NCBI GenBank assembly: GCA_964393515.1
Contig: CAYMTY010000012.1
Coordinates: forward strand, 3,473 to 67,472
Source: an uncultured Verrucomicrobiota bacterium
GTDB taxonomy: Bacteria > Verrucomicrobiota > Kiritimatiellia > CAIQIC01 > Lenti-01
Length of the DNA: 64,000 nt
Reading direction: 5' to 3'
Positions 5,103-55,973 of this stretch are shown here, in pieces; position 1 is the first letter of the stretch, and each line of letters opens with the position of its first letter. Made by a program: the position numbers and the translations under genes. The notes beneath the pieces are model-generated. The model saw only the letters and a list, made by a program, of their open reading frames with translations, was not told the origin of the DNA and searched no databases.

Positions 5103-5839
5103 GCCGCCCGTTCTACCAGCGCAAGCGGACCTGGGCCCTCGCGGCCGTTGCGCTGGCGGGTTTCCTGGCCGCGGTCTACTGGCCCGAAATCACGGCCTTC
5201 CTCGACCGCTGGGACCTGCCGCACCTGCGGAAAGCCGTGCGGGCCGCCGGGGCCTGGGGGCCGCTGCTGTGCATCCTGCTTAACGCCCTCTTCACCGTGC
5301 TGAGCCTGCCGACCACTCTGGTCTGCATCGTCGTCGGACTGCTGTTTGGCGTGGGGCGGGGCCTGCCCATCTGTCTCGCCGGGCTGACCCTCGGCATGGC
5401 TGCCTCGTTCCTGATCGCCCGCTACCTGGCCCGCGGCTGGCTCCAGCGCCGCATCGGCCATACCCGGCTCTTCGCCCGGCTGGAGGAGAGCATGCGCCGC
5501 GAAGGCTGGAAAATCGTGGTCTTCACCCGCCTCCTGCCGGTCAACCCGTTCAGCGTCCTGAACTACGCCTACGGCCTCACCAACATCCCGTTCTGGCGCT
5601 ATCTGCTGGCCTCCGCCGTCGGCATCATCCCCAACATCCTCGCGCTCCTGTGGACCGTCAAGGCCGCCGGCAAACTCGCCCGGGGCCAGATGGATTGGCG
5701 CGTGCTCCTGATCCTCTTCGCCGGCGCCGGCCTGTTCGCCGTCCTCGCCTGGCTGCCGAAATACCTCCGGCGAAAACCCCGCTTCGCCGGCCTGCCGGGC
5801 ACAGCCGATGACGAGGACGGCGGAAGCTGCTCCGATTAA
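5099..5839 (+). CDS. TVP38/TMEM64 (DedA/SNARE-associated) family inner-membrane protein
   Basis: Multi-pass hydrophobic protein with a DedA-type core: LPTTLVCIVVGLLFG ... RLLPVNPFSVLNYAYGLTNIPFWRYLLAS. A GTG start at 5099 overlaps the M16 stop. The track's upstream extension to 4940 lies inside the M16 gene. Confidence 0.7.
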   Translation: MSRPFYQRKRTWALAAVALAGFLAAVYWPEITAFLDRWDLPHLRKAVRAAGAWGPLLCILLNALFTVLSLPTTLVCIVVGLLFGVGRGLPICLAGLTLGMAASFLIARYLARGWLQRRIGHTRLFARLEESMRREGWKIVVFTRLLPVNPFSVLNYAYGLTNIPFWRYLLASAVGIIPNILALLWTVKAAGKLARGQMDWRVLLILFAGAGLFAVLAWLPKYLRRKPRFAGLPGTADDEDGGSCSD

Positions 5840-5908
5840 AGGTCCGCCGCCGCGCCCCCGCCCATTTCCGCATTGCCCCGCCGGACGCCGGCGAATATCA
5901 TGCCGCCA

Positions 5909-6835
5909 ATGAAAAATCTGGTCATTCTGGGGTCCGGCCCCGCCGGCTTGACCGCCGCCCTCTACGCCGGCCGCGCCGGCCTCGCCCCCCTCGTCCTCGA
6001 CGGCCCCAACCCCGGCGGGCCGCTCATCACCACCCCCCTCATCGAGAACATTCCCGGCTTTCCCGACGGCATCGCCGGCTTTGAATTCATCGAACTGCTG
6101 CGCCGGCAGGCGGAGAAATTCGGCGCCCGCTTCCAAAGCGCCCAGGTGGAAAAGCTGATCCCCCGCCCCGGCGGCGGCGCCGACCTCCGGCTCGCCGACG
6201 GCGCCACGATCGCCGCCGACGTCGTCATCATCGCCACTGGCGCCGACCACCGGCTCCTCGGCCTGCCCGGCGAAAAGGAACTCGCCGGCCACGGCATCTC
6301 CTACTGCGCCACCTGCGACGGCGCCTTCCACCGCGGCCAGCACATCGCCGTCGTCGGCGGCGGCGACACCGCCATGGAGGAAGCCCTTTTCCTGACGCGC
6401 TTCGCCTCCCAGGTCACCGTCATCCACCGCCGCGACGCCTTCCGCGCCTCCAAGATCATGGCCAACCGCGTGCGGGAACACCCCAAGATCCAGGTGCGCT
6501 GGAATTCCGTGGTCGCGGAACTGATCGACCCGGCCAAAGGCAAACTCACCGCCCTGAAGCTGCGCGACGTGAAGACCGGCACCGAAAGCCTCCTCGAGGT
6601 CGGCGCGCTGTTCGTGGCCATCGGCCTCGAACCGGCCACCAGGCCCTTCGAGGACGCGCTGGAATGCGACGCCAACGGCTACCTCGTCACCAACGGCGTC
6701 CTGACCAAGCATTGCTGCATCTTCGTCGCCGGCGACGTCGCCGACGCCCGCTACCGGCAGGCCGTCACCGCCGCCGGGGCCGGCTGCCGCGCCGCCATCG
6801 AGGCCATGCATTACCTGGAATCCCTCGGCGCATGA
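5909..6835 (+). CDS. trxB: Thioredoxin reductase
   Basis: FAD motif GSGPAG, redox-active CATC in YCATCDG, NADPH motif GGGDTA, and full-length TrxB architecture. Alternative upstream starts at 5873 or 5900. Confidence 0.9.
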   Translation: MKNLVILGSGPAGLTAALYAGRAGLAPLVLDGPNPGGPLITTPLIENIPGFPDGIAGFEFIELLRRQAEKFGARFQSAQVEKLIPRPGGGADLRLADGATIAADVVIIATGADHRLLGLPGEKELAGHGISYCATCDGAFHRGQHIAVVGGGDTAMEEALFLTRFASQVTVIHRRDAFRASKIMANRVREHPKIQVRWNSVVAELIDPAKGKLTALKLRDVKTGTESLLEVGALFVAIGLEPATRPFEDALECDANGYLVTNGVLTKHCCIFVAGDVADARYRQAVTAAGAGCRAAIEAMHYLESLGA

Positions 6836-8667
6836 CCGCGGAAACCCGCAAGCTGTCCGACCGCGAACGGCAGATCTACCTGCGCGTGCTGACGCGCTCC
6901 CGGCCGTACCGCGGCCGCCTGGCGCTGGCGGTCTTCTTCGGCATGACCTATGGCGGCTCCCTGTTCGGGCTGTTCGCCTCCGCCAAGGGCGGCATGACCC
7001 AGGTCTTCGGCGGCGCCGCCACCCGCCTGCAGACCGCCGTCTCCGCCTGGGCGGAACGCTGGTTCGCGGGCGAGACGGGGAACAGCTGGCTGGTCACCGC
7101 CCTCGTGCTCGGCCTCGTGCTGTTCTTCGTGCTCCTGCGCGGCCTCAGCTTCTTCCTCAGCAAGTACCTCATCGAGTGGGTCGCCCAGCGCGTGGTCATG
7201 GGCCTGCGCAACGACCTCTTCGCCCGCATCCTGCGCCTGCCCCTGCTCTACTTCACCGGTTCGCGCACCGGCGAACTCATGTCCCGCACCCTCAACGATA
7301 CTCAGCTCATCGAGCGCGGCATCACCGAGGTCATCTGCGACCTCGTCCAGCAGCCGTTCGTCCTCCTCGGCGCGGCGACCGCCCTGCTGCTCATCGACCT
7401 GCGCCTGGCCGTCGTCAGCCTGGCGATCTTCCCCGTGTGCGTCCTGCCCGTCCTGCTGTTCGGCAAGCGCGTCCGCCGCCATTCCAAGGCCGGCCAGGAG
7501 CGCATCGCCGACCTCTCCAGCCTCCAGCAGGAGGTCATCGCCGGGGCGGCCATCGTCAAGGCCTTCGGCACCGAAACCCGCGAGCAGGCGCGGTTCGAGA
7601 AGCACAGCTTCGATTTCTTCCGCCGGCAGGTCAAGATCATCGCCTCCAAGGCCGCCGTCAACCCGCTCATGGAACTGTTCTCCGCCCTGGCCGCCTGCGC
7701 CATCCTCGTCTACGCTCGCCACGCCGGTCTCCAGCTGGCCGACATCTTCATCTTCATCGGCGCCATGGTCGTCATGTACGACCCCGCCAAGAAGCTGTCC
7801 CGCGTCCACCTCGTCATCCAGCAGAGCAGCGCCGCCGCCGAACGCATTTTCACCATTCTCGACACCGAAGACACCGTCGCCGACCTGCCCGGCGCCGCGG
7901 AGTTCGCCGGCCCCATCCGCGAAATCCGCTACGAGGGCATTTCGTTCGCCTACGGCGCCGGCCAGCCGCGCGTCCTCGACGGCATCGATTTCGCCGCCCG
8001 CACCGGTGAACTCGTCGCCCTCGTCGGCGGCTCCGGCTCCGGCAAGACCACCCTGGTCAACCTCCTGCCGCGCTTTTTCGACCCGACCGCCGGCCACGTC
8101 CGCCTTGACGGCCGCGACCTGCGCGAATTCACCCTCGCCAGCCTCCGCCGCCGCATCGGCCTCGTCACCCAGGAAACCATCCTCTTCAACGACACCGTGT
8201 TCGCCAACATCGCCTACGGCGAGCCCGGCGCCACCCGCGCACAGGTCGAGGCCGCCGCGAAAAAGGCCCACGCCCACGAGTTCATCCTCGCCATGCCCAG
8301 GGGCTACGACACCGTCATCGCCGAGCGCGGCCTGCTCCTTTCCGGCGGCCAGCGCCAGCGCCTCGCCATCGCCCGCGCCCTCCTGCGCAATCCGCCCATC
8401 CTCATCCTCGATGAGGCCACCAGCGCCCTCGACACCGAATCCGAACGCGCCGTGCAGGCGGCCCTCAACGAGGCCATGCAGGGCCGCACTGTCTTCGCCA
8501 TCGCCCACCGCCTCTCCACCATCCAGCGCGCCAACCAGATCCTCGTCCTCGACCGCGGCCGCATCGCCGAGCGCGGCCGCCATGAAGAACTCCTTGCCCG
8601 CGATGGCATCTACTGCCGCCTTTACCATATGCAGTTCGAACACCAGGCCGCCGGAACCCCGCCATGA
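6832..8667 (+). CDS. msbA: ABC exporter, fused permease + ATPase (MsbA/lipid A exporter family)
   Basis: A six-TM N-terminal domain is followed by Walker A GGSGSGKTT, ABC signature LSGGQRQR and Walker B ILILDEAT. The ATG at 6832 overlaps the trxB stop. Confidence 0.85.
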   Translation: MTAETRKLSDRERQIYLRVLTRSRPYRGRLALAVFFGMTYGGSLFGLFASAKGGMTQVFGGAATRLQTAVSAWAERWFAGETGNSWLVTALVLGLVLFFVLLRGLSFFLSKYLIEWVAQRVVMGLRNDLFARILRLPLLYFTGSRTGELMSRTLNDTQLIERGITEVICDLVQQPFVLLGAATALLLIDLRLAVVSLAIFPVCVLPVLLFGKRVRRHSKAGQERIADLSSLQQEVIAGAAIVKAFGTETREQARFEKHSFDFFRRQVKIIASKAAVNPLMELFSALAACAILVYARHAGLQLADIFIFIGAMVVMYDPAKKLSRVHLVIQQSSAAAERIFTILDTEDTVADLPGAAEFAGPIREIRYEGISFAYGAGQPRVLDGIDFAARTGELVALVGGSGSGKTTLVNLLPRFFDPTAGHVRLDGRDLREFTLASLRRRIGLVTQETILFNDTVFANIAYGEPGATRAQVEAAAKKAHAHEFILAMPRGYDTVIAERGLLLSGGQRQRLAIARALLRNPPILILDEATSALDTESERAVQAALNEAMQGRTVFAIAHRLSTIQRANQILVLDRGRIAERGRHEELLARDGIYCRLYHMQFEHQAAGTPP

Positions 8668-8945
8668 ACGCCATCGAAGCCCACCTGCTGAGCGCCCTCT
8701 GCGCCATCCGCGACCCCGTCGAAATGCGCCGGGTCCTCGCCGACCTTTTGACCCCCGCCGAATACAAGGCCCTCCGCAAACGCTGGACCATCCTGCGACT
8801 CCTGCGCGCCGGCGTCCCCCAGCGCGAAATCGCCCGCCGCATCGGCGGCAGCCTCTGCAACGTCACCCGCGGCGCCCGCCTCATGCACAACCCCGATTGC
8901 GCCTCCGCCCGCCTCATGGACCGGCTCGAAAAGGCTTCCCGCTAG
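8664..8945 (+). CDS. TrpR-family (Trp repressor-like, YerC/YecD-type) HTH protein
   Basis: 93 aa. The LLTPAEYKALRKRWTILRLLRAGVPQREIARRIGGSLCNVTRG segment aligns with E. coli TrpR [45 protein letters not shown]. The start overlaps the msbA stop (ATGA). Confidence 0.7.
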   Translation: MNAIEAHLLSALCAIRDPVEMRRVLADLLTPAEYKALRKRWTILRLLRAGVPQREIARRIGGSLCNVTRGARLMHNPDCASARLMDRLEKASR

Positions 8946-14154: not shown

Positions 14155-15629
14155 TTGGCTCCGGCGCCCTGCCCGCCCGGGGCGGCCAGCCGGACCCGGC
14201 CCAGCCAGAGGAGGCGCACTTGACGATTTGTAGCGGTTCGGTCGTAGGCGAGCAATCCTTTCAGCACGGACCAGCGCCGGCCGCCGGCGGCCCGCTCGTG
14301 CTGCCACAGCGGGAAGAGCGAAACCGCCCGGGCGTTGTCTTTCCGCCGCGTGTCGCGGTACAGGCCCCAGAGCACGTCGAGGTCGCGCCGCTCCCCGTTC
14401 CGGCGGTAGTCCCACAGCGTCCACAGCGGCGCCCAGCTGCGCTCGACGGGCGGGGGGTGCACGGCCGGCCAGAGGTCCGGCGCCCGCCAGAGGCAGGTGC
14501 CCGCCTCGCGGTCCACCTGCCGGGAGCATAGCGGCCAAAGCTTCGTGCGGTTGGCCACCGCCGCCGCGGCCTGGCGTTCCGCTGGCGGCAGGGCCGCCGT
14601 CTGCGACACGCAGTTCCAGAACGGCGCCACGCTCCAGCGGGTGATCTTCCGCCCGCCCCACGTGTTCTTCTCGCGGGTGATGATGGGCCACAGCCAGTAG
14701 CGCCGGTCCAGCACGCCGTCCTTGCGGTAGCCCCACAGCGGCCAGACGGACAGCCGCGTGCGGTAGCCCGTCTCCCGCTGGAAGAACGGCCACGGGCAGA
14801 ACAGCCGCGTCTGCCGGTCGCCGCCGATGCGCTGGAAGAACGGCGGCAGGACCATCCAGCCTTTCTGGCCCTCCAGGTCCACCCGGCCACAGAGCGGGAA
14901 CAGCACCCAGGCCGTGCCCGGCGCCTTGGGGTGGGTGTAGCGCGCGTGCGTCCAGAAGGGCCACAGCACCGTGTGCTTCTCATGCTGCCGCGCGTTCTTC
15001 GTGCGGGCGTAGAAGGGAAAAACCCGCAGCTTCTCCAAGTGGCCGTCGGGCGTCGTCGTCCGCGAATAAAGCGGCCAGAGCACGTCTGTCGTCCGCACGT
15101 CGTTCACCGCGCTGCGCGCCCACAGCGGCCACAGGAAAAACCGGATCCGGTCCTTCCACAGGATGTTGCGGACCTCCCCGCCCAGCGGGAACAGCGCCGC
15201 GTAGCCCCGGCCGTTTTCGTCCCGCCCGTGGAACCACAGCGGCAGGATCCAGAACCGGTACTGCGACTCCGGATCGGTCCGGTCCTTGTCGAAGAAATAC
15301 GTCGTCAGCGCCCGCCAGTAGCGCTCCGCGCCGAACGCCCGCCCCGACGCCGCCGGCCACAGGCAGTCCCACGACGACCGGTCCGTCGCCGGATCGGTCG
15401 CCCGCGCGTACAGCGGCCGCGGCACCGCCCGCAGCCGCATCCCGCCCGGCCCCTGGGCCGCCTCCCAGAACGGGCCCGCCGCGCGCAGCCGCCCGTTCCC
15501 GTCCGCGTCCACCAGCTCCGAAGCCAGCGGCCCCCAGTCCCATTCCAGGCACCACGGGACCACCGGCCCGTCCGCGCGCGCCCCCGCGCCGGCCAGCCAC
15601 GCCAGCACCGCCACGGTTTTCCACACCAT
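14151..15629 (-). CDS. Secreted protein built from about 20-aa Trp/Pro-rich repeats (LWPL / FPLW / WPFW motifs). First gene of the mla operon.
   Basis: Signal peptide MVWKTVAVLAWLAGAGARA. At least 15 quasi-periodic repeats such as VLWPLYSRTT, VLWPFWTHARY, SVWPLWGYRKD, WLWPIITREK, KLWPLCSRQVD, PLWTLWDYRRN, SLFPLWQHERA. The stop overlaps the mlaE ATG (ATGA). The track extends this ORF to 16763, but everything upstream of 15629 is the low-GC repeat region. Confidence 0.55.
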   Translation of the reverse strand: MVWKTVAVLAWLAGAGARADGPVVPWCLEWDWGPLASELVDADGNGRLRAAGPFWEAAQGPGGMRLRAVPRPLYARATDPATDRSSWDCLWPAASGRAFGAERYWRALTTYFFDKDRTDPESQYRFWILPLWFHGRDENGRGYAALFPLGGEVRNILWKDRIRFFLWPLWARSAVNDVRTTDVLWPLYSRTTTPDGHLEKLRVFPFYARTKNARQHEKHTVLWPFWTHARYTHPKAPGTAWVLFPLCGRVDLEGQKGWMVLPPFFQRIGGDRQTRLFCPWPFFQRETGYRTRLSVWPLWGYRKDGVLDRRYWLWPIITREKNTWGGRKITRWSVAPFWNCVSQTAALPPAERQAAAAVANRTKLWPLCSRQVDREAGTCLWRAPDLWPAVHPPPVERSWAPLWTLWDYRRNGERRDLDVLWGLYRDTRRKDNARAVSLFPLWQHERAAGGRRWSVLKGLLAYDRTATNRQVRLLWLGRVRLAAPGGQGAGAK

Positions 15630-15790
15630 GGAAAACTGTTTCGCCGTTTTTCCACGCAATGGAAAATATTTTTCCACACCGTGGAAAAATCGACCGGTTT
15701 TTTCCACATCCCGGAAGACTTTTTGGCGAATTTTCCACACTATGGAAAAATATTTTCCACACCGTGGAAAACTTCCCTTGTCCGCCGTCC
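15628..15790. promoter_or_regulatory. Array of six 19-21 bp palindromic sites TTTTCCAC-N3/4-(R)TGGAAAA, which are DnaA-box-like TTTTCCACA 9-mers on both strands, in a low-GC (about 40%) stretch
   Basis: Direct reading: TTTTCCACACCATGGAAAA / TTTTTCCACGCAATGGAAAATA / TTTTTCCACACCGTGGAAAAAT / TTTTTTCCACATCCCGGAAGACTTTTT / TTTTCCACACTATGGAAAAATA / TTTTCCACACCGTGGAAAAC. Five plus-strand 9-mers match the relaxed DnaA-box consensus TTWTNCACA. The first site contains the start codon of the WP-repeat gene. Confidence 0.5.
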
Positions 15791-15828
15791 GCAGAACGCG
15801 GAGACCGGGGATTTCTTCCGGATTTTTA

Positions 15829-15983
15829 CGGGCTTTCCCGCGGAAATAAGCCGCGAATTTTCCGATGAGGCCGCTTCGCGGACGACCCGAGCTGGACTCG
15901 TGTCCGCGAGCGGTCGGCCGCGAAGCGGTCGCGCGGAAAAGACGCGGCTTGGTTTCCGCGCCGTCACAATCCGGAAGAAATCC
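15829..15983. repeat. Copy A of a conserved roughly 160-bp palindromic element with 13-bp terminal inverted repeats (GGATTTCTTCCGG ... CCGGAAGAAATCC)
   Basis: About 85% identical to 46238..46402. A 50-nt core, GCCGCTTCGCGGACGACCCGAGCTGGACTCGTGTCCGCGAGCGGTCGGCC, is identical in both copies. Long imperfect hairpin potential: GCCGCTTCGCGG pairs with CCGCGAAGCGG, with the alternative partner GTCCGCGAGCGG. Confidence 0.8.
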
Positions 15984-16015
15984 CCGATTTTTCATCTCGT
16001 CACTTTCGCCATGGC

Positions 16016-17803: not shown

Positions 17804-18429
17804 TCAAGCCAGCGGCCGGCCCTCGGCATCGAACCGCGGGGCGGCGGTGACCGCGGGGTGCAGGTAGATCGGCTGCAGTTCCTCGCTCGCGTCCCCCGCA
17901 AAGAACAGCTTGCCCACCCATTCCGCCCGGGGCGGGCGGCTTCGTTCAATCCAGTGCGCGCCCGGCCATTCCCGGCCCCAGGCCTCCGCCGGCAATAGTT
18001 TCCAAGCCCCCACCCGGTGCACTGCCGGCCCCTTCCCGCGCTCGAAAAGGCCGGCCCAGAGTGTTCCGCGCCGGGCCACGCCCGACACCACGACCTGCGC
18101 CAGTTGCGGCCGTTCCGCAAAAAAATCCGCCGCCAGTGCCGCGGCGCTGCTCACCGTCCAGACCGGCTTGTGATCCGGCAGGGCCCAGCCGTGCGCGGCC
18201 GTCAGGCTCACCCGCAGCCCCGTATAGGCCCCCGGCCCTCGGCCGACCGCAACCGCACCGATCTCCCGAAAGGTCCAGCCTGCACCTGCCAGAAGCGCAG
18301 CCGCCGCATCGAACAACCCCTGACTGCGGCGCGAACTGGCGTCCACGGGTTGCACCGCGACCACCGCGCCGTCCGCTAGTAGCGCCAGACTTGCCGTCTC
18401 TGTCGAAAATTCCAAGGCCAGCACGTTCA
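17804..18429 (-). CDS. tsaB: tRNA threonylcarbamoyladenosine (t6A) biosynthesis protein TsaB (YeaZ)
   Basis: MNVLALEFSTETASLALL...GRGPGAYTGLRVSLTAAHGWAL is the inactive-Kae1 (YeaZ) fold. Start chosen at ATG 18429. The track's 18505 extension is unsupported. Confidence 0.75.
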
Positions 18430-18592
18430 TCCCGCCCCAAATTGCCAGTTTTCCATCCGGGGGCAAATCATATTCCATGGGTCCGCCCCCATCTTGGCTG
18501 ACCAACCATCATCGCCGGCTTGCCGATTCCCCCTGCGGGGGCCTGCGCCGGCCCGCCCGCCGCCGTGCCTTCGCGGCTCCAACCGAAGATAC

Positions 18593-18726
18593 CAACGATG
18601 TATTATAATACATCGTTTATAGGTCGTATACTATTACTTATTATAGTGCTCTAAGTTATGTATTATATATAATCAGTTATGTAACAATAATATGATCCTC
18701 ATGCGATCTATTATAATACATCGCAT
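18593..18726. promoter_or_regulatory. About 22% GC island bounded by two palindromes: AACGATGTATTATAATACATCGTT (24 bp, perfect) and ATGCGATCTATTATAATACATCGCAT (26 bp, one mismatch). Core TGT-N8-ACA / TATAAT.
   Basis: Direct reading of 18593-18616 and 18701-18726. Between them lies about 85 bp of A/T-rich sequence (tataggtcgtatactattacttattatag...tattatatataatcag...). It is intergenic, downstream of the glycosylase gene and upstream of tsaB. Confidence 0.45.
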
Positions 18727-18730
18727 GGGT

Positions 18731-19291
18731 TCACGGACTGGGGCGACCGCCTTTGCCCCATCCTGCGGACGGCAGGGCGGCGCGCCAAGCGGCCAGTTTT
18801 CGGGACAGGCTGCGGGTGGCATGGGCGGGGCTGGTCGAGGGCAGCCGCACCCGTTCCACGCCGGCCAGTTGCGCCCGGCAGGCCGGCCACACGTGCTTCC
18901 GGAACAACGCCTCCGCCGCGCCGCCGTTGAACGCAATCAATTCCAGTTCCGGATGCCGCGCCAGCAGGCGGGGGATATCGTTGGCCACCCGTTGCCGGGG
19001 ATGGATGTCCGCGTCCAGGCTGCCGGGCCGCCGGGCGGCCTGCAGCACGTCCCAGAGCATCACGCCGGCCGCCGCCAGTTTCCGCAGGCGGGTCGGATAG
19101 TTCCATTCCCGCCCCGCGCCGTACAGAACGCCCATGATCGGCCAAAAGGCGTTGCGGGGATGCGCATAGTACTCCCCCTGCCGCAGCGAGGCCACACTGG
19201 GCAGCGTGCCCAGCACCAGCACGCGCGCGCGCCGAGGCTCGACCGGCGGAAAGCCCACCGCCCAGGCGGCGGGCGGGCAGGGGTGTTTCAT
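18731..19291 (-). CDS. Uracil-DNA glycosylase superfamily protein (hypoxanthine/deoxyinosine-DNA glycosylase-like)
   Basis: [32 protein letters not shown] matches the UDG-superfamily GT(L)PS...Y.HP.N.FW core. Start at MKHPCPP (19291). The track's upstream extension to 19777 is low-complexity. Confidence 0.6.
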
Positions 19292-19803
19292 GGGTCCGCG
19301 GCGCGCGGCACGAAGCGGAGGGCAACGGAGTTGATGCAGTAACGCAGGCCGGTGGGCCGCGGACCGTCTTCGAAGACATGCCCGAGGTGCGCATCGCACC
19401 GCGCGCAGAGCACCTCCGTCCGCACCATCCCATGGCTGCGGTCCTCCCGCAGGGCCACCTGGCGTCCAGCCACCGGCTGGAAATAGCTGGGCCAGCCCGT
19501 GCCCGAATCGAACTTGGCCTCGGAGGAAAACAACGGCAGGCCGCAACCCACACAGAGATAGGTGCCCGGCTCGTGGTGGTTGTGAAACGCCCCTGAGCAG
19601 GCCCGCTCGGTACCCTGCTGCCGCGTAATCCGGTACTGTTCGGGCGTCAGCAGCGCCCGCCATTCCGCATCCGACTTGACCACTTTCTCCATGGGAGCCT
19701 CCCCGTCCGCCGGAGCGGTCGCCGCCGCGGTCCGGCCGAGGCCGGCGGCCGCCAGCAGGCCCGCCGCCCAGATCCATTTCATTTCCGGTTTCATGGTGTT
19801 CAT
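19288..19803 (-). CDS. msrB: Peptide-methionine (R)-S-oxide reductase MsrB with signal peptide (periplasmic)
   Basis: SelR domain with both CxxC pairs (CVGCGLPLF ... [12 protein letters not shown]) and a catalytic RYCINS. N-terminal [22 protein letters not shown] signal peptide. Confidence 0.85.
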
Positions 19804-19896
19804 TCTACCCTCTTTGTCCCGCCGCCGCCAGTCCGGCCCTTTGAGTCCGGCCCTTTGGCGCTTGCGCCCTCGGGCCGCGCATGGCAGATTGACACC

Positions 19897-21703: not shown

Positions 21704-22305
21704 GCATGGCCCGGGGTATGCTTGCCGCAGGCCTGCTTGGGATGCTGGTCCTCCGTGCCGGCGCTGCCGGCGCCCCCTGGCAGACCTTGCGTTTGCCGGC
21801 CGCGGCCGTCCAGTTGAACCAGGCCGCGGAAGCCGCTGCCGACCCGGCTGAAGCGGCGCGGCTCTACACCCAGGCGATCCGCGCCTGCCCCTCCAACTAC
21901 CCCGCCCTCTACGGCCTGGGCCGGGCCCTGCTCGCCCAGGAGCAGGCGGCCGGCGCCCGCAAGGTATTCGAGCGCCTCAACACCCTATTTCCGGACGACT
22001 CGACCATCCTGCTAGCCCTGGCCGCCGCCGTGGCGCGGTTGCCCGAACCCCGGCGCGCCGACATCGCCGTCGGGCTGGCCGCGGCCGGACAGGCCGCCCG
22101 GCTCGGGCCCGGCTCCTCCGAGGTGCAGTACCTTCTGTCGGTCCTGCTGCATATGAACGGCGACCACGCCGCAGCCGTGGCGGCGTCCCGCCAGGCCGTC
22201 GCGCTTGACGCCGCGAATCCCGCCGATGCTGAAACCACTGCCCGCTACCAACAACAGGAGATCATATGCACCGATGCCCTTTGGGTATTCTCGCCCTTGG
22301 ACTGA
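21700..22305 (+). CDS. Secreted TPR-like hypothetical protein
   Basis: Signal peptide MSMARGMLAAGLLGMLVLRAGAAGA, then Ala/Leu-rich TPR-like helical pairs. The 3' end overlaps the next ORF by about 40 nt, so the exact end is uncertain. Confidence 0.45.
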   Translation: MSMARGMLAAGLLGMLVLRAGAAGAPWQTLRLPAAAVQLNQAAEAAADPAEAARLYTQAIRACPSNYPALYGLGRALLAQEQAAGARKVFERLNTLFPDDSTILLALAAAVARLPEPRRADIAVGLAAAGQAARLGPGSSEVQYLLSVLLHMNGDHAAAVAASRQAVALDAANPADAETTARYQQQEIICTDALWVFSPLD

Positions 22306-24463: not shown

Positions 24464-27400
24464 CTATTTGCTCCGGAGCCGGATGAAGAGCGTGCCGTCC
24501 GCGTCCGGATCCACCACGGTGTCGGTCAGCCCGGTGGTGGCGGCGCTCACCGCCCGCTGCACGCCGACCCCGGTCCAACCCGCGCCATCGGTGAGATCCT
24601 CGTTCACCATGAATTCCACGACGGCCGAGTTGCCTGCCGGGTTCACCTCGGTGACATTGTAGGTCACCACGGCGCCGGTGGCGGTTTTTTCGATGCGGGT
24701 GATGACGGTACCGGCGGTGATGCCGCTGGGGGGCCGGTCGAACCGGTTGTTGGGATCGGAACCGGCGGCCAACTCGACGCCATCGCTGTAGCCGTCGCCG
24801 TCGGAGTCCCACATCAGCGGATTGGTCCGGCGGACGACGACCTCGTCGGCATCGTTGATGCCGTCGCCGTCGGTATCCGCCATCCGGGGATCCGTGCCCA
24901 GATCCCGTTCCTGGGCATTGGGCAGGGTGTCGCCGTCGGGATCGCCGTCCGGCCCGTCGTCGCCGGTGGGAACCAGCGGATTCAGGCGGTAGCGGACTTC
25001 CCAATCGTCCTGCAAGCCGTCGTCATCGGAATCTGCGTCGCAGGGGTTGGTGCCGTTGGCCTGTTCGAGGGCGTTGGACAGGTTGTCGCCATCCGCGTCC
25101 GCGGTGCCGTCGGCGGGATCCCGCGGGTCGAGACCGGCGCAGGCCTGGTAGGTGAGTTCCCATCCGTCGAGCAGGGTATCCCCGTCGGTATCGGGATTGG
25201 CGGGATTGGTGCCGTAGATTTCGAGTTCGGCCCGGTCATTGAGCCCGTCGAAATCGCTGTCCCAGCGCATGGGATTGGTGCCCAGCGCCAGTTCGGCTTC
25301 GTCGGTCAGGCCGTCGCCGTCGCTGTCCACGTTGTTCTTCCAGTAGGCCAGCGAATTATAGATCAGCAGATTCTGGCCCGGCACCGATCCTTGCGAAGTC
25401 AGCGCCAGGGTTTTCACGGAGAATTCCAGCGCGTAGGGCAATTGAGAGCCGGTCGATCCCTTGGGGTTCGCTTTGCGGGCCAGGATGATCCCGCCCGAGG
25501 GCTCGCCCTTGAGGAAGCCCCACGGCTCGCCGACATCCAGCATTCCGTTGCTGTTCCGGTCCAGGAAACCCCGGACATGATAGGCCCCGGCGCGCAGGCC
25601 CAGCAGGGTGTAGCTGCCGTCGGCGGCCGCCCGGACACGGGCGGCGGGGGTCTGATCAAAACCGGCCCCGGCAAAGGCCTCCACGACACGCACGCCGGTA
25701 TTGGTGCCGAAGTAGCCGATCTTGCCCCGGATGGTGCCGGCCCCGACGGGCGCCGGCTGCAGGTTGACCGAGAAGGGCGCCGAGGCCGTTCCGGAGCTGA
25801 CGCGCGGATTGAGGGCCGAGACGCGGATGGCATAGTCGCCATTGGTAAAAGTTCCCCAGCCCGCCAACCAGGGCAGGTCCATCTCGGCGATGCCGGCGTT
25901 GTTGACCACCGGCGCGGGGACCGTGAAGCTCAAGAAGGTGGTCCCGCCGCGCTGAATCTGAACCGTCACCTGGGCGGCATTCTTGGAAAGGCGGAGCTGC
26001 AGCCGGTTCCGGGCATGCGGCAGGGTCATGTTGGTCGGAGACAAGATGCTCGGCGCGGCCAAGGAGGCGGCATACCAGATGCTGTTCGAGCCCGAGGCAA
26101 ATACATTGGTACCGGTCATGACGATGGAACCATCGGAGGGCGGCGCCCCACCGACCACGGCCCACTTGTAGTTCCCGTACAGGGGTGCCACGCCGGCCTG
26201 CCGGAAATCCATCTCCGTGATAAACGGCCGATCCATGGATTCCAGGTCGCGCACCGCGGAATAGATGATGGAGCCGCCGATCTGCTGGATCGATACGATG
26301 TAGGTCGTGCTGTTCACCTGCGCGAGCGCCGCGGCGATCTTCGCCAGGTCCTGCTCCCACGAGAAGCGGATGTAGCCGGCCGGCTTGTCGGTCAGGGTGA
26401 CGCGGACGTCTGCGGAGCCCCACTGGATGTTTTCGACGCCGCTCTGCGCGAAGCCCTCGCTGAAGCCCAGCCACTCGGCCTCGCCGGCTGTGCCGCCGGC
26501 GTTCCACTTGCCGTCTCCGTTGGCATCGATGAACGCCATGAAGATGTTGTTCCCCTGCCGCAGGTGGCCGACATCCCAGTTGGTGACCGTGCAGGTGCTG
26601 CCGTTGGCGAACAGGCCCTCCAGCGGGATGACGGTCCGGGCATCCGGCCGGCGCATGGCCAGGTCCGAATAGGCCCAGACCACGAGCGGGGCTTCGGCCG
26701 ACAGCGTGGCCGCCGCATCGCCCAGGAAGGTGAAGGTCACCGGCGGCACCGGATAGGAGTCGGGGTCGTCGGGCCGGGTCGGCCCCACGGCCATCCGGTT
26801 GGTGACGCCCTCCACCACGGTCAAATCAAAACCCGTTCCCAGGTATTCCGCGAGATTGTGCCAGCCGTCGCCGTCGGGGTCGGTGCCGGCGTCGTTGACG
26901 AGCGGGCTCAGCACGTCGGCATAGATGATCTCCCAGGCGTCCGGGATCAGGTCGCCGTCCATGAAGTATTCGCCGAAGCTCAGGCAGTTGCCGACGCAGA
27001 GCGGATCGTTGGAGTCGTAGTCGCTGAAGCCGTCGCCGTCGCTGTCCCAATCGGTGGGATTGGTGCCGGCCAGGTATTCGGCCAGGTTGGTCAGGCCGTC
27101 GCGGTCCGGGTCGCCGTAGGCGCCGTCGTTGCCGCGTTCGCTGTTGGGATCCAGGCCGTACAGGGTTTCCCAGCCGTCGGGCAGGCCGTCGCCGTCGCTG
27201 TCGCTTAAGAAAGGCTGGTTTTGCTGGGAGAGCACTTCAAACGCCACATCGCCCACCAGCCGGCCGGCATAGTCCCAGTTGTTCTGGTAGATCAGGTTTT
27301 CCAGGGTGGCGCCGCCATCGTCGGCGGGATAGTAGCCCACCAGCGCAGTCAGGGCGTAGACCCGCAGCGGGTAGAAGTTTTCCAGGGGTGCCTGGTCCAC

Positions 27401-30400
27401 CGTGCGCACGTGCAGTGCGCCGGGGATGTACGTGCCGTACTCCATGTCCGGATTGCGCACGGCCGCCCGGTCTTCCGCATGCACCCCCTGCTGGAAGTCG
27501 AAGTTGAAATAGCTCACCAGGCCGCTTTCGCTGCCGTACAGGTTCTGCTTCATGGCGCTGCGGACTTCCTCGGTCGTGAGCGCGTTGTTCCAAATGCGGA
27601 CTTCGTCGATGTCGCCCGCAAGGCCGCGGCCGATCTCCACGGGACCGTCCAAAATGCGGATTGACAGGTCCGTGTAATCCGTCCCGATCGAAATCGGCAC
27701 CAGCAGGCTGTTCTGGATGGCAGACAGTTCACCGTCGATGTACAGGGTGGTGTTCATCTCATCCCGCGTGTAGGCCACGTGATGCCATTTGCCGTCGTTC
27801 ACCGGCTTGGCCGAGATCAGATTGTTGATCGAGGTGTTAACAACCACATCGCCAACGGTCACGACCCCGTTGGTATCCGTGTCCGTTTCGCGCCATTGGA
27901 TTGCAAACCGGCCGACCAGCCGGCCGCCCTCGCCGACGGTGAGGGCGTAGTTGAAATCGTCGGTTTCGCCGATGACATTCCCCGTGTTCACGCGGGAGAT
28001 GATGGCGCCGGCGTCGTCCGAAGTGCGCACCCAGCATTCCAGGGTCCAGGTCTGCAACTGGTCGCGGGCCGTGTTGGGGGCCGCCACTTCGCGCAGATGC
28101 CCCTGGTCGCCCACGACGCGCAGCAGGCCGGAATCGGCAGCGGCCACCCCGAAGAGCAGATTGCGGCGGCTGAATTCCTGGATGTCCACGTCCCGGCGGC
28201 CGATCTTCCAGATCCGCACGTCCTTCAGACGGCCCACGAAGCCATTGCCGCCGAAATAGGTATCGCCCGGGCCCTGGGCCGGATCATAGCTGGTGATCTG
28301 GGAGCGGACCACCTGGCCGTTGATGAACAAGCCCAGGCTGCCATCGGAGAGGCGCCCGGCCAGATGCACCCACTGATTCGTCTCCAGCGGGAGGTTCACG
28401 GTCAGTTCCGTGAGGTTGGCGTCGTTGAAGTGGTTGAAGCGGACATAGGGTACGATCTGGTTGCTGCCGTTGTTGCGGATGCCCAGTTCGTAGTTGAGCC
28501 AGTTGCTGCAGCGCACGGTGCGCTGCACGAGCGGCTGATCCACGCCCAGCGGCGGCACGGCCTCCGGCTGGACGAAGCATTCGATCGTCCACTCCTCGGC
28601 GCCCAGGTGTTCCGTGTCCACGCCCCGGACCCGGTCCGCCACCACGATTTCGCCCGCGCCGCCCGAGGCCCCGAAGCGGAGCGCCTTCATTTCGTAGGGA
28701 ATCATGGAATAGGCCGGATCGGTGGCGGCCGCGAGTTCCCCGTTGTCGTCCAGGCCGGAATCATCGGTGTCCCGGCGGTCCACCCGGCTGCCGTGGTGGG
28801 CCTGTTCATCCCGGCTGATCAGCGTATCGCCGTCGTGATCCTCATTGCCGTCACCGGTGCCATTGCCGTTGCTGTCGGCCAGCACCGGATTCAGGGACGG
28901 CAGGCCCAGCGCCTGGTTCATGAAGCTGATTCGCCATTCATTCAGGTTGGTCAGGCCGTCGCCGTCGGGATCGTCGTCGGGCTCGTCCTCCTCGGTCTGC
29001 GCCAGGAACCACTCCTCCCACCAGACGGGCATGTCCTCTTCCGAATCCACGAACGAGTAGTTGAAGGGCGTGATGGCGGTCGCGAACGTTGCGGCGTCGA
29101 AGGCCACGCCGGTGAGGGCGTAGTCCCAGTTCCGGAACTGGGTGTAGTCCTCCGCCAGCAGGCCGCCGTCGTCGAAGGGATAGAAGGCGAAGTCCTCCGC
29201 GGCATCATCGGTGACAATGGCGGTGAGGATCTGGGACAGTTCGGAGCCGCCCGGCGCCGGGAAGAAGGTGCCGCCGGTTCCGGTGGCAATGCGCTCCAGT
29301 TCGAACGTGCTGCCGGCCAGGATCGAGGAGCCGAAGCCCACGGTGTTGACCTTGGCGCCCAGCGTCACGAGCTGGGCCAGATCCGTGTCCGTCGGCACGC
29401 CCGAGTTGGGCACGCCGTCCGAGATCAGGATGCCCACGTATCCGCCGGGGGCTTCGCGACCCGAGATGATTTCGATCATCTTGGACACGGGCGCGCTGTA
29501 GCTGGTGTTCCCGATCGGGACCAGGGAATCGACCAAGGTCTTCAACGTGTCCCGGTCGGCGGTGAACTCCTGGACCATCTGGACTTCGTTGTCGAAGGTG
29601 ATGATCGCCATGGAAGCGCCCTTGGGCATGGAATCGATGGCGACCGTGGCGGCCTCCTTGGCCTGGTCCATGCGGCTTTCCGCGGCCATGCTGCCCGAGA
29701 CGTCGATCATCAGGACGTAGTCGGCCGAGGGCATACCGCCGCCCAGCAATTGGCGGCCGATGAACACATCGTCGATCCGGCCGGTGATGTTCTCCCCGAT
29801 GTAGGTGGCGCCCCGCCCCGTGATGCAGGGCGCGGCGACGTTCAGGGCCGCCACGACGCAATCATCGACCAGGAGCCGCAGAATGTGGTTGGACGGGCTC
29901 CACTCGGCAATCACGGCGGAGAACCGGTCGGTCGGCAGCGGGTCGGTGCCGCTGGCCGTGTAGGTCGCCATCAGGGGGTTGTTGAAGCGCACAAAGGGGA
30001 CGTTGTTATTCAGGCCCAGTTCGAAATGGATGCCGCCGCCCTCCACGTCCCGCCGGATGAGGGAGCCGGTCTGGGCGGCATCGGGCTTCACCATGGCCGC
30101 CAGATGCCACTGGGCAAGGTTTTCGAAACGCTGCGGGGTGAGATCGTCTTCAAGCACCCGCTGGGGCTCCGGAACCAGCACGGGGGTTCCGTCCAGCACC
30201 AGGCTGCGGTCCACCTGCGGGCTCCGCGAATAGATGCCGGAGGTGTTCTCGGTGACCTCCAGGTCGTCCCGGCGGCCATCGTCGTCCGTGTCGGAATTGT
30301 CCGGATCGGTGCCCCAGGTCCAGATTTCCGCCGCATTGGCCAGGGTGTCGCCATCGCTGTCCCATTCGGCGTCGGTCAGGCGGCCGGTGGGATCCTGGGA

Positions 30401-33400
30401 GTACATGCCGTGCGGATCGCTGCCGATGCGGAATTCCCAGTAGTTGCTGAGGCCGTCCCCGTCGGGATCCTCTTCGGCCACGGAAGCGCCGCGCGGATCG
30501 AACCCGTGTTCGAGGTACCACCAGTCCGGGATGCCGTCGCGGTTGGAGTCATAGCTCATGCTGGCACCGGCGCCGGCGCCGTCCCACAATTCGACCGCGG
30601 CGTCCGCCCGGGCGTCGCGCAGGGGCAGCAGATCGTTGAAGAGCGAATTGTCCCGGGTCGTGAAGACCAGGTGTTCCTGGTTCAGGGCGTCCGGGTGGTT
30701 CTCCAGCCATTCGGTGGCGCCGTGATAGTAACCCATATTGTAGGGATTGGCGCTGTTGGGGAAGTCGCGCTGCTGCTGGATCACGGTGGTCACGTTGGTG
30801 GCCACGTTGGTGACCGTCACCACGTCGCCGTCCGTGTTGGTGGTGGAAGTCGTGGTGATCTCCAGGTTGGTGACCTGGACGGGGACCATCATCTGGTTGT
30901 AGGGCGAATCGGGCGGCGGATCGAGCGGGAAGCGCGCGGCGATGTTGGCGATCCACGGCACATAGTGGTAGTTGTCATACACCGTGGACCGGTCGAGGGC
31001 GGTTCCCCACCACGGCACGTTCGGATAGGAGCCGTCGTTTGGCCGGCCGTTCAAGAGCTCGAAGCCGGCGGGCGCGACGCCTTCGCCCGCGGTCAGCGGG
31101 TCCATCAGGTTGTTGAAATTGTAGAGGTACATCAATTCCGGCGCGGCGGGGGTGTCGGTCACCGCGGCGCGGTTGGCGATCACATCGTCCAGGTCCATCT
31201 TCGCCATGCGCTCCTGCGCGATCTGGGCGCTGGTTTTCGCGCCGTTCCAGATGCGCACTTCATCCACCCAGCCTTCGAAGTAATTCGACAGGTCCGGCTG
31301 GGTCAGGACGGTCCCGGCATAGTACCCGACGAGGATCGGCGTGCCCGACACCCAGCCGTCCGGATTGTTTTCTTTCGCGCCCACCACGATCGGCGCGGAA
31401 AACACAAAGGCGGGATTCCCGGTGAACCAGCCGTTGGCGGGCCGTTCGGCGCTGGCCACGCTGGCGCGCATTTCCCCGTCGATGTACAGATACAGGCGCT
31501 TGGCGGTCCCGTCATACACCCCGGCCAGGTGATACCAGCGATCGGCCTGCAGGGCGTAGGCGCTGGCGGCCTTGGCTTCCACGTAGAGCGCGTCGTAGCC
31601 CAGCCCGTTGTAGGCGACATACGGCTGCCCATTGGCATCCAGGGCCAGCCGGAAATTGAGCCGGTTGCCTTCCGGGAAGCCCATGAGATTGCCGTTGGGC
31701 ACGGTCATCGGCCGTTCCAAGATGACCTGCATCTCGCCCTTGGCCGGATTGACGGCCCGGACCCAGGTCTCGATGGTGAAGGTGGTCATGGCGTAGGCGG
31801 GATGGAGGAACCGGCCGCGGGTGCGGGCGGCGGCATCGCCGTCGAGATACAGGGCGCGCCGGCGCGGCGGCGATTCCACGTTCAGCGGATCCGTGCTGCC
31901 CGGGCTGGTGGGCGTATGCACGAGTTCGGCCCGGTCACCCAGCATGTCGCTGTCCGAGTCAAAGCCTTCGCTGGAGGCAAACGAGAACATATAGGACGGC
32001 GGCGGACGAATCGTCGAGCCCCAATACCAGTAATTCAGCAGGTTGCCGAGGCCGTAATACAGGTTCACCCAGCTGAGCTGGTAGCTGGTGTCCCGGACCC
32101 ACAGCGGCGAAGGGCTGGTGTGGTAGTAGGCCGGAGCCGGGACATTGGCCTGAATGGATTCATCCGAGTTGGGCAAGCCGTCCTGGTCCGGGTCGGCAAA
32201 CGGGGAACCGGCGACAAAGGGCCACAGGCGGATGTCGAAGGTGGGCGGTACTCCGGCAAAGACCGTGGCGCCGAGGACCATGGACTGGTGGATGTCCAGC
32301 GTCCCGTACATGGGATTCAAGCCGTGATAGATCTCCCAGAAATCATCCATGCCGTCCCAGTCGGTATCGGCGACGCGCGGGCTGGTGGCCGTGTACCGGT
32401 TGTTGACGTGGTTGATGTAATAATAGTCGTAGGTGTTCTGCTGGCTGTTCCAATCCCAGGGGAACGGCGTGCCGCCGAAGAACAGCATGGGGTCGTAGCT
32501 GCCCAGCGGTTGGTTGGCGATCCATTCCGTATAGCGCCAGTGGTGCACGGACCCGCTCAGGTACTCCTGGTAGTTGACCAGCCCGTCGTCGTCATAATCC
32601 GCCGGGGCGTCCTTGTGGGTGCCGTCCATGCCGTTGCGGCCGTCCAGGTCGGTGATGTCATAGATCGTCGAGCGGTAGCGGGCCTCCCAGTGGTCGGGGA
32701 TGGCGTCGCGGTCCGTGTCGGCTGTCGTGGGGTTGAGGCCGCAGCCGATGTAGCAGCTGTTGTTCCAGTTGATGACGCCCCCGGCGTACTTGAGGACGGC
32801 CAGGCTGCCTTCCGCGTCCTCGCCGCCCGGGAGATCCTTGTCGCTGTAGCCGCCCTCGCCGCCGTCGATCAGGCCGTCGCCGTCGGTGTCGTCCACATTG
32901 GGATCGGACGGCCAGACCTTGTTGAGCCAGGCCATGTCGAAATGGGTCCGGCCGTTGGGCCAGCTCGCTCCGCGGGTCAGATTGATGTCGTAGGCGCTGA
33001 ATTCCTGGAAGGCGTTCAAGCCGTCCGCATCCCCGTCCACAATGGCGTCGTCCTGGTTCACGGGATTGAGCCCCACATAGAGCTCCCAGCCGTCGAAAAT
33101 CCCGTCGGTATCCGTGTCGATGCTCAACGGATTCACGGCAAAACTGTTGAAATTGGCGCAGGAAAACCCGCCCTGGAGGAAGCCCAGGTAGAGGGTGGCC
33201 AGGAATTTCTCGCGGTTGTTGAAGGGCTGCGTGTTTTCCTGGCCGGAGAGGGCCCGGACCGTCCCGCGCGTCAGATAATTTTCACCCCAGCCGGTGCGGG
33301 GGTCGAATCCCAGTTCGTCGTACACCTGCCGGTGGCGGAATTCGGAAACGCCGTCGTCGTAATAGGCCATGTAGTCGCCGGAGGGATTGCGGGTGCCGTC

Positions 33401-34495: not shown

Positions 34496-34541
34496 TTGCT
34501 CCTGGCAGAGACGGCCCGACTGGTAAACATGGTCCTACAAA

Positions 34542-44130: not shown

Positions 44131-44732
44131 TGCTCGGAATCCTCCGCTGGCAGGGCTGTACCGGTCTCTTCGGGATCCGGAGCCGCCGCTCCGGACGTGA
44201 AATCATTTCCAGCGGCCACCCCGTCCGGCGGCTGCTCCAGGGCTTGCAGTTCCAGTTGCTTGCGTACCCGGTCATTGGCCAGCGTCATGATTTCCCGCTG
44301 GATTGTCCCAATCCGCCCGCTCACCCCTGCCTGCTGTTCCTGGAATGCCGTATAGCCCGGGTCGGCAGCCAGCTGCTGGGCCAGGGATTCCTGCAGAGCT
44401 TGCAGTTCGCGCTGCGCGGCTTCGATCCGCTGCTCGAGATCCTGCATGACGGCGTTGCTGGCCACGATCTGCCGGTGGATCTCAAACTGGCTGCGGTGCG
44501 TTTCGCGGGCCTGTTCCATCAGGGCGGTTTGCTCCTGCTCCAGGACCGCCAGCCGGCTGTCAATGGCGCTGATTTGCTCCTGGAACTCGCGCGCCGGATC
44601 TGCCGGCATCTCCGCCGGCGCCGGCGTTTCTGGAAGCTCTTCGGCAAAACTGCTTGCGGGTAAAAATAATAGCGGAACCAGGCTGAAAACCAACGACAAG
44701 CCGCAACGCGAAAACATGCCCAACCTCTTCAT
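44127..44732 (-). CDS. Small secreted acidic coiled-coil protein (partner 2). Its stop overlaps the ATG of the 2987-aa gene (ATGA).
   Basis: MKRLGMFSRCGLSLVFSLVPLLFLPASSFAEE (signal), a Pro/Glu linker, then long Gln/Glu-rich coiled coil (RLAVLEQEQTALMEQARETHRSQFEIHRQIVASNAVMQDLEQRIEAAQRELQALQESLAQQLAAD...) and an acidic tail. Same architecture as 34542..35045. Confidence 0.55.
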   Translation of the reverse strand: MKRLGMFSRCGLSLVFSLVPLLFLPASSFAEELPETPAPAEMPADPAREFQEQISAIDSRLAVLEQEQTALMEQARETHRSQFEIHRQIVASNAVMQDLEQRIEAAQRELQALQESLAQQLAADPGYTAFQEQQAGVSGRIGTIQREIMTLANDRVRKQLELQALEQPPDGVAAGNDFTSGAAAPDPEETGTALPAEDSEQ

Positions 44733-55592: not shown

Positions 55593-55667
55593 CGCCTGAC
55601 GCCTCTTCAAAATGGATGGTCTAACCTACCACGCTTGCAACCCGCGGCAAATCCGGATAACGAGGGT

Positions 55668-55973
55668 TCAGGGTTCGGGCGGGGACGGGGATGGTTTGGA
55701 CAGATATTCCGCCGGCGGCTCGCCCACGGCCGGAGCCACCAACCCCTGTTGTCGCGCGAACTTCATGAACCACCGTTGCATTTCCACCAGACCACTGGTG
55801 GCGCGGGGTTTTCCGAACCGCAAAGCCAGATCGACCAAAGCATCCACCGTGGACACGTCCTTGCGCGTGTCCAGGGCGCGCAACTCTTCCCGCCGGATCC
55901 GATCCAATTCGGGTCCGGCCCGTTTCCACCCCTGAACGTATTGCCGATACTGCTCCCGGACCGTCGCGTTCAT
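55668..55973 (-). CDS. Small hypothetical protein, translationally coupled (ATGA) to the upstream nucleotidyltransferase gene
   Basis: MNATVREQYRQYVQGWKRAGPELDRIRREELRALDTRKDVSTVDALVDLALRFGK... (101 aa, helical). No family recognised. Confidence 0.4.
   Translation of the reverse strand: MNATVREQYRQYVQGWKRAGPELDRIRREELRALDTRKDVSTVDALVDLALRFGKPRATSGLVEMQRWFMKFARQQGLVAPAVGEPPAEYLSKPSPSPPEP

Follow-up and report, generated by a model that had tools for sequence, protein, structure and literature searches.

The stretch of DNA analysed here (64 kb, referred to as the window) comes from an uncultured member of the Kiritimatiellia and is GC-rich, at 67.5% GC over its whole length. The names carried by homologues that are 70–76% identical also assign it to the Kiritimatiellia, within the Planctomycetes–Verrucomicrobia–Chlamydiae group. 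Between the 3′ end of a DNA glycosylase gene and tsaB it carries an AT-rich island of 134 bp (~135 bp) at 18594–18727, which is delimited by palindromes at both ends, contains no conserved open reading frame (ORF), and is the lowest-GC region of the window by a wide margin in a sliding-window analysis. The GC fraction falls to 0.22 in the best 100-bp segment and to 0.25 in the best 134-bp segment, and the next-lowest 134-bp region stands at 0.40. An earlier reading of the same DNA from its letters (the sequence-only reading) had singled out this place as the lowest-GC stretch of the window, which the present analysis bears out. Its figure of 22% GC applies to the best 100-bp segment, whereas the interval to which it was attached (18593–18726) is 26% GC, and its description of the interior as almost pure A/T does not hold, the 82-bp spacer being 24% GC.

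The two terminal palindromes, termed site A (palindrome 2, or pal2, of the sequence-only reading) and site B (its palindrome 1, or pal1), share a 20-bp core, CGAT-S-TATTATAATA-S-ATCG (as a search motif, CGATSTATTATAATASATCG), and both are centred on a perfect TATAAT on both strands. Paired palindromes had been described at these places before, one a perfect 24-mer and the other a 26-mer with one mismatched pair, and both descriptions are accurate. The conserved core of site B occupies 18596–18615. Site A was first delimited as ATGCGATCTATTATAATACATCGCAT (18701–18726), but its symmetry extends to 28 bp, with a single C/C (G/G) mismatched pair at position ±6. The centres of the two sites lie 108 bp apart in the window, and the stop codon of the glycosylase gene (18731–18733, minus strand) is three bases from the 28-bp form of site A and four from the 26-mer; the gene does end beside the island, as had been noted. 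The 20-bp core is found at only these two places in the 64 kb when up to three mismatches are allowed, and in none of 100 shuffles, the next-best match elsewhere in the window being 13/20. In sequences shuffled to the island's own composition, a lone palindrome of 20 bp or longer turns up 2.6% of the time, but two palindromes with one common 20-bp core are not expected by chance, and chance is excluded as their origin. As the island is found in four independent assemblies (L001, L020, L021 and L007), it is no assembly artefact; the same sequence also occurs in Logan assemblies from environmental runs.

Relatives were located via the TsaB and glycosylase proteins, and three island-bearing lineages were compared, namely the window strain (window and L001), a second strain recovered from two other samples (L020 and L021; glycosylase 99% identical, ~2% overall DNA divergence) and a sister species (L007; TsaB 81% identical, four-fold sites 80% identical to the window), which together provide six sites and 12 half-sites. 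The islands of the window and L020 differ by 11 substitutions in 133 bp, eight in the interior and three in the palindromes; the eight interior changes fall within 82 bp, between two strains that are otherwise ~1–2% apart. Two of the three palindrome substitutions form a symmetric pair at ±11 of site A, where the ATGCGAT...ATCGCAT of the window has become ATACGAT...ATCGTAT in L020 (G:C to A:T on both sides), and the L020 orthologue of site B reads AAACGATATATTATAATACATCGTT. In L007, the island begins 30 bp past the glycosylase stop codon and carries the sites ATACGATCTATTATAATACATCGTAT and AAACAATCTATTATAATACATCGTTT, the latter being the orthologue of site B, and its site A is the exact reverse complement of site A of L020. 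The centre-to-centre spacing of the sites is 108, 108 and 110 bp in the window, L020 and L007, respectively, with interior lengths of 82, 82 and 84 bp and an interior GC fraction of 0.24–0.29 across the three lineages.

Between the window and L007, the 20-bp cores are identical at 36/40 positions and the 26-mers at 45–46/52 (87–90%). The interior of the window aligns with that of L007 at z = 2.7 when inverted and z = 0.3 when collinear (p no better than ~0.01), and for the L020 interior against L007 neither orientation is significant; the spacer has thus kept its length and composition between the species but not its sequence, which defies convincing alignment either way round. The distal flank shows no significant similarity between the window and L007 (p = 0.08), and the 38-bp proximal flank is ~47% identical by manual count. 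Against this local non-coding background, which is near saturation, the sites clearly stand out. In both species a GC hairpin (TCCCGCGGGGA in L007) is centred 59 bp past site B, and CC immediately precedes site A in all three lineages; thus, the position of the island is orthologous, and its conservation represents retention in place. The 12 half-sites give the consensus A-C-G-A-T-(G/C)-T-A-T-T-A, and all of the ten inner half-site positions except ±6 are invariant in 11–12 of the 12. In five of the six sites the ±6 pair is mismatched (G/G, C/C or A/C), and likewise in five of six one side of the ATGT/ACAT frame is altered (to ATCT, AGAT or ATAT), breaking even TGT/ACA.

In more distant relatives, whose glycosylase or TsaB is ~75–77% identical (L008, L022–L026, L027 and L028), the island is not found. 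L008 keeps the gene order of L007, but has just 30 bp between the glycosylase gene and its homologue of ORF95 (described below) and thus presents an empty site, whereas other genes follow the glycosylase in L022–L028. The island is restricted to one small lineage of the Kiritimatiellia and sits exactly at a recurrent synteny breakpoint 3′ of the glycosylase gene. It is probably an AT-rich insertion gained 3′ of the msrB–glycosylase operon in the common ancestor of the two species. The sequence-only reading had listed an integration scar among its suggestions, and this is supported in part, in that a lineage-specific AT-rich block is present that has no counterpart at the same site in distant relatives. 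It had also named, as grounds for dismissal, a motif unique to this locus and lacking in relatives; the motif is unique to the locus within the window, yet it is conserved in relatives. More widely, the cdaA-ybbR-TPR / msrB–glycosylase block is conserved, and the genes after the glycosylase vary among znuABC, a Mem_trans permease, the ORF95-pabBC pair described below, and tsaB.

The genes flanking the island (msrB, the glycosylase gene, tsaB, panD and an amidohydrolase gene) all lie on the minus strand (Table 1). The first bases of the glycosylase gene overlap the last of msrB, from which cdaA and ybbR diverge, and tsaB is followed downstream by panD and then the amidohydrolase gene. Approximately 160 bp of GC-rich DNA lie between the island and tsaB, the distance from site B being 116 bp to the called start of tsaB (18478) or 164 bp to its conserved start (18430). 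In both L007 and L008, a small ORF (95 or 145 aa; ORF95) and a pabB-pabC fusion are located between the glycosylase gene and tsaB on the opposite strand; ORF95 is membrane-like and has no Pfam hit, and the fusion combines Chorismate_bind and Aminotran_4 domains. The window species (window, L001, L020 and L021) lacks both genes (window ~18457–18593 versus 787–2976 in L007 and 529–2878 in L008), which implies that p-aminobenzoate synthesis has been lost at this locus. The L007 island is thus flanked by convergent genes and separated from tsaB by 2.3 kb. In the window species, the deletion of pabBC and ORF95 alone brought the island to within ~120–160 bp of tsaB, and this placement is secondary. 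The GC-rich hairpin beyond site B probably terminated the ORF95 operon, whether lost or neighbouring.

Table 1. Features at and around the AT-rich island (window coordinates)
Feature	Position	Strand	Description
tsaB (TsaD/YeaZ family)	17804–18430	-	conserved start MNVLAL at 18430; gene callers extend to 18478
Degenerate remnant of two TTTTCCAC-N3-GTGGAAAA palindromes	18442–18480		not part of the island
GC-rich hairpin CCCCCTGCGGGGG	18529–18541		centred 59 bp beyond site B
Site B (pal1)	18594–18617		perfect 24-bp palindrome AACGATGTATTATAATACATCGTT
AT-rich spacer	18618–18699		82 bp, GC 0.24
Site A (pal2)	18700–18727		28-bp palindrome CATGCGATCTATTATAATACATCGCATG
DNA-deoxyinosine (hypoxanthine) glycosylase, UDG superfamily	18731–19291	-	186 aa; names from the source annotation
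msrB (SelR domain)	19288–19803	-	first gene of the msrB–glycosylase pair upstream of the island; coordinates converted from L001

A further set of palindromes touches this region. Directly upstream of tsaB, two tandem TTTTCCAC-N3-GTGGAAAA palindromes are intact in L007 (2941–2985) and L008 (~2940–2985), where they occupy the divergent pabB–tsaB region, and the degenerate remnant in the window marks the right edge of the pabBC-ORF95 deletion. The TTTTCCAC-N3-GTGGAAAA motif is thus a conserved feature of this lineage that is found at more than one locus.

The island is a real, lineage-specific and partly conserved AT-rich module, and the likeliest reading of it, which we hold to be plausible rather than probable, is that its palindromes are paired protein-binding sites placed on formerly foreign DNA. 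A dimeric DNA-binding protein would occupy both sites and span the flexible, AT-rich DNA between them. A homodimeric, sequence-specific protein (e.g. a winged-helix repressor) would bind each terminal palindrome, and with the sites 108–110 bp apart (~10.3–10.5 helical turns) two bound dimers could bridge and loop the spacer, which would then be constrained in length and AT-richness alone. Occupancy may have the effect of masking promoter-like foreign DNA (TATAAT) or of providing a roadblock between neighbouring operons. The anatomy of the island, how its parts are conserved, the spacing of the sites, the orthologous location and the lack of an island in outgroups are observed; protein binding to the sites, formation of the loop and the regulatory outcome are what we infer here. 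The conservation of sequence rather than of pairing, the tolerance of a fixed mismatch at ±6 and the spacing of about ten turns together fit paired dimer sites best; a pair mismatched in all sites but one is tolerated by a dimeric protein, but would not be if selection acted on a hairpin. No conserved ORF, Rfam family or conserved promoter is found in the interior, the Rfam search giving nothing at the gathering threshold and noise alone at E ≤ 10, and neither scanning nor manual inspection for sigma-70 promoters reveals a conserved −35 element in any of the four directions. An 18-aa hydrophobic ORF that starts inside pal1 was considered and rejected, as its ATG is lost in L020 and lacking in L007.

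Among known systems, the operators of PadR-type regulators (LmrR, PadR and bcPadR1) offer one parallel. The PadR operator consensus is ATGT-N8-ACAT, with a canonical 8-bp spacing (PMC5428041, PMC3506622). Pal1 is exactly ATGT-ATTATAAT-ACAT, an AT-rich dyad over a −10-like element, and pal2 and the orthologues keep one exact half. However, just one ATGT half is intact in five of the six island sites, the conserved site extends over 20–26 bp as opposed to the 16 bp of the consensus, and the island does not lie in a promoter in its ancestral layout. PadR operators are usually found next to the regulator or its target, whereas the island has no adjacent PadR gene, and no match to PadR (PF03551) is present among the ~38 window ORFs scanned or among the neighbouring ORFs of L007 and L008. 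With so weak a consensus and no PadR-family gene among the ~38 ORFs, PadR is a lead and not a family assignment. A second parallel is provided by looping operator pairs, of which GalR OE/OI (113 bp) and lac O1/O3 (92 bp) are examples. These share with the island near-identical palindromic sites about ten turns apart and a bendable AT-rich spacer of free sequence. They differ in that their loops enclose known promoters of a known operon and their repressor is known; the spacing of the island's sites varies by 2 bp between species.

Several observations weigh against the reading as twin protein-binding sites. The identity of the sites (87–90%) is not significantly higher than that of four-fold sites (80%; p ~ 0.07) and is at best suggestive of constraint; it is therefore their contrast with adjoining non-coding sequence that makes the case for selection. 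PadR, Rrf2, Xre or recombinase domains occur in none of the ~38 window ORFs scanned, and the sole helix-turn-helix (HTH)-type match among them is a TrpR/YerC-like protein 10 kb away. The ancestral layout, as represented by L007, places the island between convergent genes with no obvious gene to regulate. No second site is found in the 64 kb, where no other sequence reaches 14/20, and copies in a GC-rich context are lacking in GTDB, JGI and IMG/VR, collections that do not include the source genomes. A 25% GC block bounded exactly by terminal repeats resembles a mobile element more closely than it does native operator DNA, and the symmetric double change at ±11, together with hairpins that are better kept on one strand, hints that hairpin formation matters. 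The TrpR/YerC-YecD-family HTH protein itself is small and encoded on the plus strand (8586–8945; PF01371, E = 5e-14).

If the palindromes are true binding sites, the island defines a cis-element, and with it a regulator, in the Kiritimatiellia, an uncultured-dominated lineage of the Planctomycetes–Verrucomicrobia–Chlamydiae (PVC) group for which, to our knowledge, essentially no transcriptional regulation has been described. Such sites would also exemplify how a genome of 67% GC can keep a short stretch of foreign, AT-rich DNA while holding it in check. As a mobile-element relic, the island would be an ordinary one. In either case it marks neither an SOS regulon nor a tsaB promoter, and its value stays modest until genome-wide copy number or binding data become available.

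The 19–20-mer core was also scanned against GTDB genomes and JGI metagenomes, and IMG/VR was scanned both with the core and with the two-site pattern. Four matches in GTDB and 11 in JGI are obtained, all of them chance matches in AT-rich DNA; most are terminator hairpins, one is a toxin–antitoxin promoter (L003) and one is the operator of an HTH gene (L013). IMG/VR gives no match to the core or to the two-site pattern, BLAST of the island against plasmids and phages gives none, and a literature search for the exact motif returned no paper. The L003 match (6240–6320, in a gammaproteobacterial metagenome-assembled genome) is a perfect 26-bp palindrome, ATACGATGTATTATAATACATCGTAT, that agrees with site A of L020 and L007 at 25/26 bases and differs from it at one of the variable ±6 positions. 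It lies between a TTGACA −35 element and the start of a two-gene cassette, with its centre on TATAAT, and by eye the cassette appears to pair a gene for a RelE-like toxin with one for an HTH antitoxin. That three further bases match on either side is likely due to chance, but the case demonstrates the capacity of this sequence to act as an operator overlapping a promoter.

Three host functions had been proposed from the sequence and can be weighed against the comparative data. The TATAAT hexamers were suggested as −10 elements for tsaB, and in an extended form the island would be the promoter or operator of a tsaB-panD-amidohydrolase operon, with the TATAAT of site B as its −10. The TATAAT is perfect and, in the window species, the island precedes the start of tsaB by 116–164 bp in the same-strand sense; moreover, the pabBC deletion damaged the native tsaB-proximal palindromes, so that a new promoter may have been recruited. 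The proposal nevertheless fails the comparative test. Two opposite-strand genes (2.3 kb) separate the island from tsaB in L007, no −35 element at 16–18 bp and no TGn extension are conserved in any lineage by scan or manual inspection, and relatives without the island express tsaB from other sequences. As the L007 island lies 2.3 kb away between convergent genes, it was not originally a tsaB promoter, and we regard such a role in the window species as very unlikely. Least probable of all, and to our minds scarcely credible, is that the island represents LexA-type SOS boxes for DNA-repair genes or the DNA-unwinding element of a replication origin. The LexA SOS box of Escherichia coli is CTGT-N8-ACAG (PMC8565304). 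A 16-bp dyad with TGT-N8-ACA spacing and an AT-rich centre, adjoining a DNA glycosylase gene, does resemble such boxes. Uracil-glycosylase genes have been reported to be SOS-regulated in Verrucomicrobia. The LexA motif of the Verrucomicrobia, TGTTC-N4-GAACA, occurs in the window at chance level (13 matches versus 13.2 expected), with no significant site. The half-sites of the island read ATGT/ACAT where CTGT/ACAG has an outer C/G, five of the six sites have one damaged half, the repair gene has the island at its 3′ end and not in front of it, the region upstream of uvrA (~55626–55700) lacks the motif, and no other copy is present in the 64 kb, so that there is no sign of a regulon and the SOS proposal falls. 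For an origin, a cluster of DnaA-box-like motifs 2.8 kb away could be cited, but no DnaA box lies in or beside the island ancestrally, the L007 island is 5 kb from the cluster, and there is no GC-skew switch; the region is therefore not an origin, a terminus or a dif site, and the suggested DNA-unwinding element is not upheld. A dif/Xer site was also tried and rejected, the best match to five dif sequences (from Verrucomicrobia, E. coli and Bacillus subtilis) being 17/28 against a shuffle mean of 15 and a maximum of 18–20.

The remaining alternatives concern what the palindromes do as DNA ends, RNA or crossover points. The main rival of the twin-site reading, and only slightly less probable, is a non-autonomous mobile element of very small size, or what remains of one, akin to miniature inverted-repeat transposable elements (MITEs), BIME or Correia elements, whose ends would be recognised by a transposase or recombinase encoded elsewhere and which would have no host function. 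The size of the island, its AT-richness and the 24–28 bp terminal repeats that delimit the AT block exactly are those of such an element; two sister species have it, and L008 and L022–L028 lack it at this site. It occupies a 'safe' 3′ intergenic site between convergent genes at a synteny breakpoint, and its interior evolves fast and without apparent constraint. Bacterial elements of this type include Correia/NEMIS, ERIC and BIME/RIP, and the likeness to Correia, ERIC and BIME extends to a non-coding, AT-rich body of 100–150 bp, terminal repeats of ~26 bp with promoter-like ends, location at gene 3′ ends or between convergent genes, and presence/absence among relatives. Those elements are, however, multi-copy and mostly flanked by target-site duplications, whereas the island has one copy in the 64 kb, none in ~35 kb of other Kiritimatiellia loci, and no duplication at its flanks (AACCC / GGTAT in the window, AATCC / ATATG in L007). 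Matches are also lacking in GTDB, JGI, IMG/VR, plasmids and phages, although the source genome is not among the collections scanned. Each terminus is itself palindromic, which is unusual for terminal inverted repeats, and the copy has been vertically inherited and kept in place over a species split; the ends of a dead copy should decay as fast as the interior, yet they are kept. A function as hairpins in RNA or single-stranded DNA, forming a bidirectional terminator or 3′-end stabiliser between the msrB–glycosylase and pabBC-ORF95 operons that survives as a relic in the window, appears unlikely. The ancestral position between convergent genes suits it, all six sites fold at −7.4 to −11.2 kcal/mol on the glycosylase-antisense (ORF95 sense) strand, on which both single symmetry-breaking substitutions become G-U pairs and site B is followed by UUUAU or UUUUU, the double change at ±11 preserves pairing, and where the motif turns up by chance in AT-rich genomes, it mostly belongs to a terminator hairpin with runs of A and T on its flanks. 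The preference for one strand, though, rests on two substitutions (p ~ 0.25), and folding of the glycosylase sense strand yields anything between −0.9 and −13.8 kcal/mol, with values as weak as −0.9 and −4.7. The ±6 pair is mismatched in all sites but one, the loop and the central bases vary no more than the stem does, a U-tract is missing at site A, a terminator scan is empty here, and AU-rich stems are odd for a 67% GC organism. That the palindromes are crossover sites of a site-specific recombinase, with the 82-bp spacer as an invertible or exchangeable mini-cassette (inverton), is highly improbable. Palindromes of 24–28 bp with an AT-rich TTATAA centre in mutually inverted orientation are of the kind seen at hix or res site I, and the imperfect symmetry, the division into two 12-bp half-sites and the inverted pairing are shared with the sites of small serine recombinases (hix, gix and res site I). 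Alignment of the window interior with that of L007 improves slightly on inversion, the A sites of L020 and L007 are exact reverse complements of each other, and the interior has been replaced or has diverged far beyond four-fold sites. On the other hand, the inversion signal vanishes when L020 is used in place of the window, all four window-species assemblies are in one orientation, and inversion between the species is unproven. No recombinase gene is found among the window ORFs scanned or nearby, enhancer or accessory sites are lacking, the interior has no conserved promoter to switch, and 82 bp is very short for a recombination loop and far below known invertible segments. A broader version, in which recombinase- or regulator-bound palindromes frame an 82–84 bp segment that is inverted, exchanged or hypermutated between lineages as a domesticated mini-cassette, is still distinctly unlikely; if true, an operon boundary in the Kiritimatiellia would hold a switch of very small size that can be inverted or replaced, in a group for which we know of no described phase-variation system.

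The DnaA-box-like motifs mentioned above form a conspicuous cluster of their own. Within an intergenic region at ~14980–16015, the segment 15617–15775 holds five exact copies of TTTTCCACA and at least one variant (TTTTCCACG), where 0.14 copies are expected. TTTTCCACA fits the relaxed DnaA-box consensus TTWTNCACA, most of its copies form 19-bp palindromes TTTTCCAC-N3-GTGGAAAA, and the 134-bp segment that holds the cluster has the second-lowest GC content of the whole window. L007 has kept the cluster, which there lies downstream of the amidohydrolase gene (5660–5842). No GC-skew switch is seen at the cluster, and it could be an oriC/DnaA-box cluster or a set of sites for another regulator.

Elsewhere in the window, two giant tandem ORFs of a kind typical of PVC bacteria are present on the minus strand (24464–34534, 3357 aa; 35167–44202, 3012 aa). 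A nucleotidyltransferase gene of the DUF6036 / AbiEii-like type (55970–56557, minus strand), possibly encoding the toxin of a type IV toxin–antitoxin system, adjoins a gene for a SWIM zinc-finger protein (56616–58511). Finally, the window and L020, otherwise ~1% apart, differ by 26 substitutions in ~120 bp near the end of the TPR gene (22100–22223), by eight substitutions in 24 bp within tsaB (18083–18106) and by a 14-bp indel in the msrB–cdaA intergenic region (19840–19853), clusters that may represent recombination tracts or hypervariable patches.

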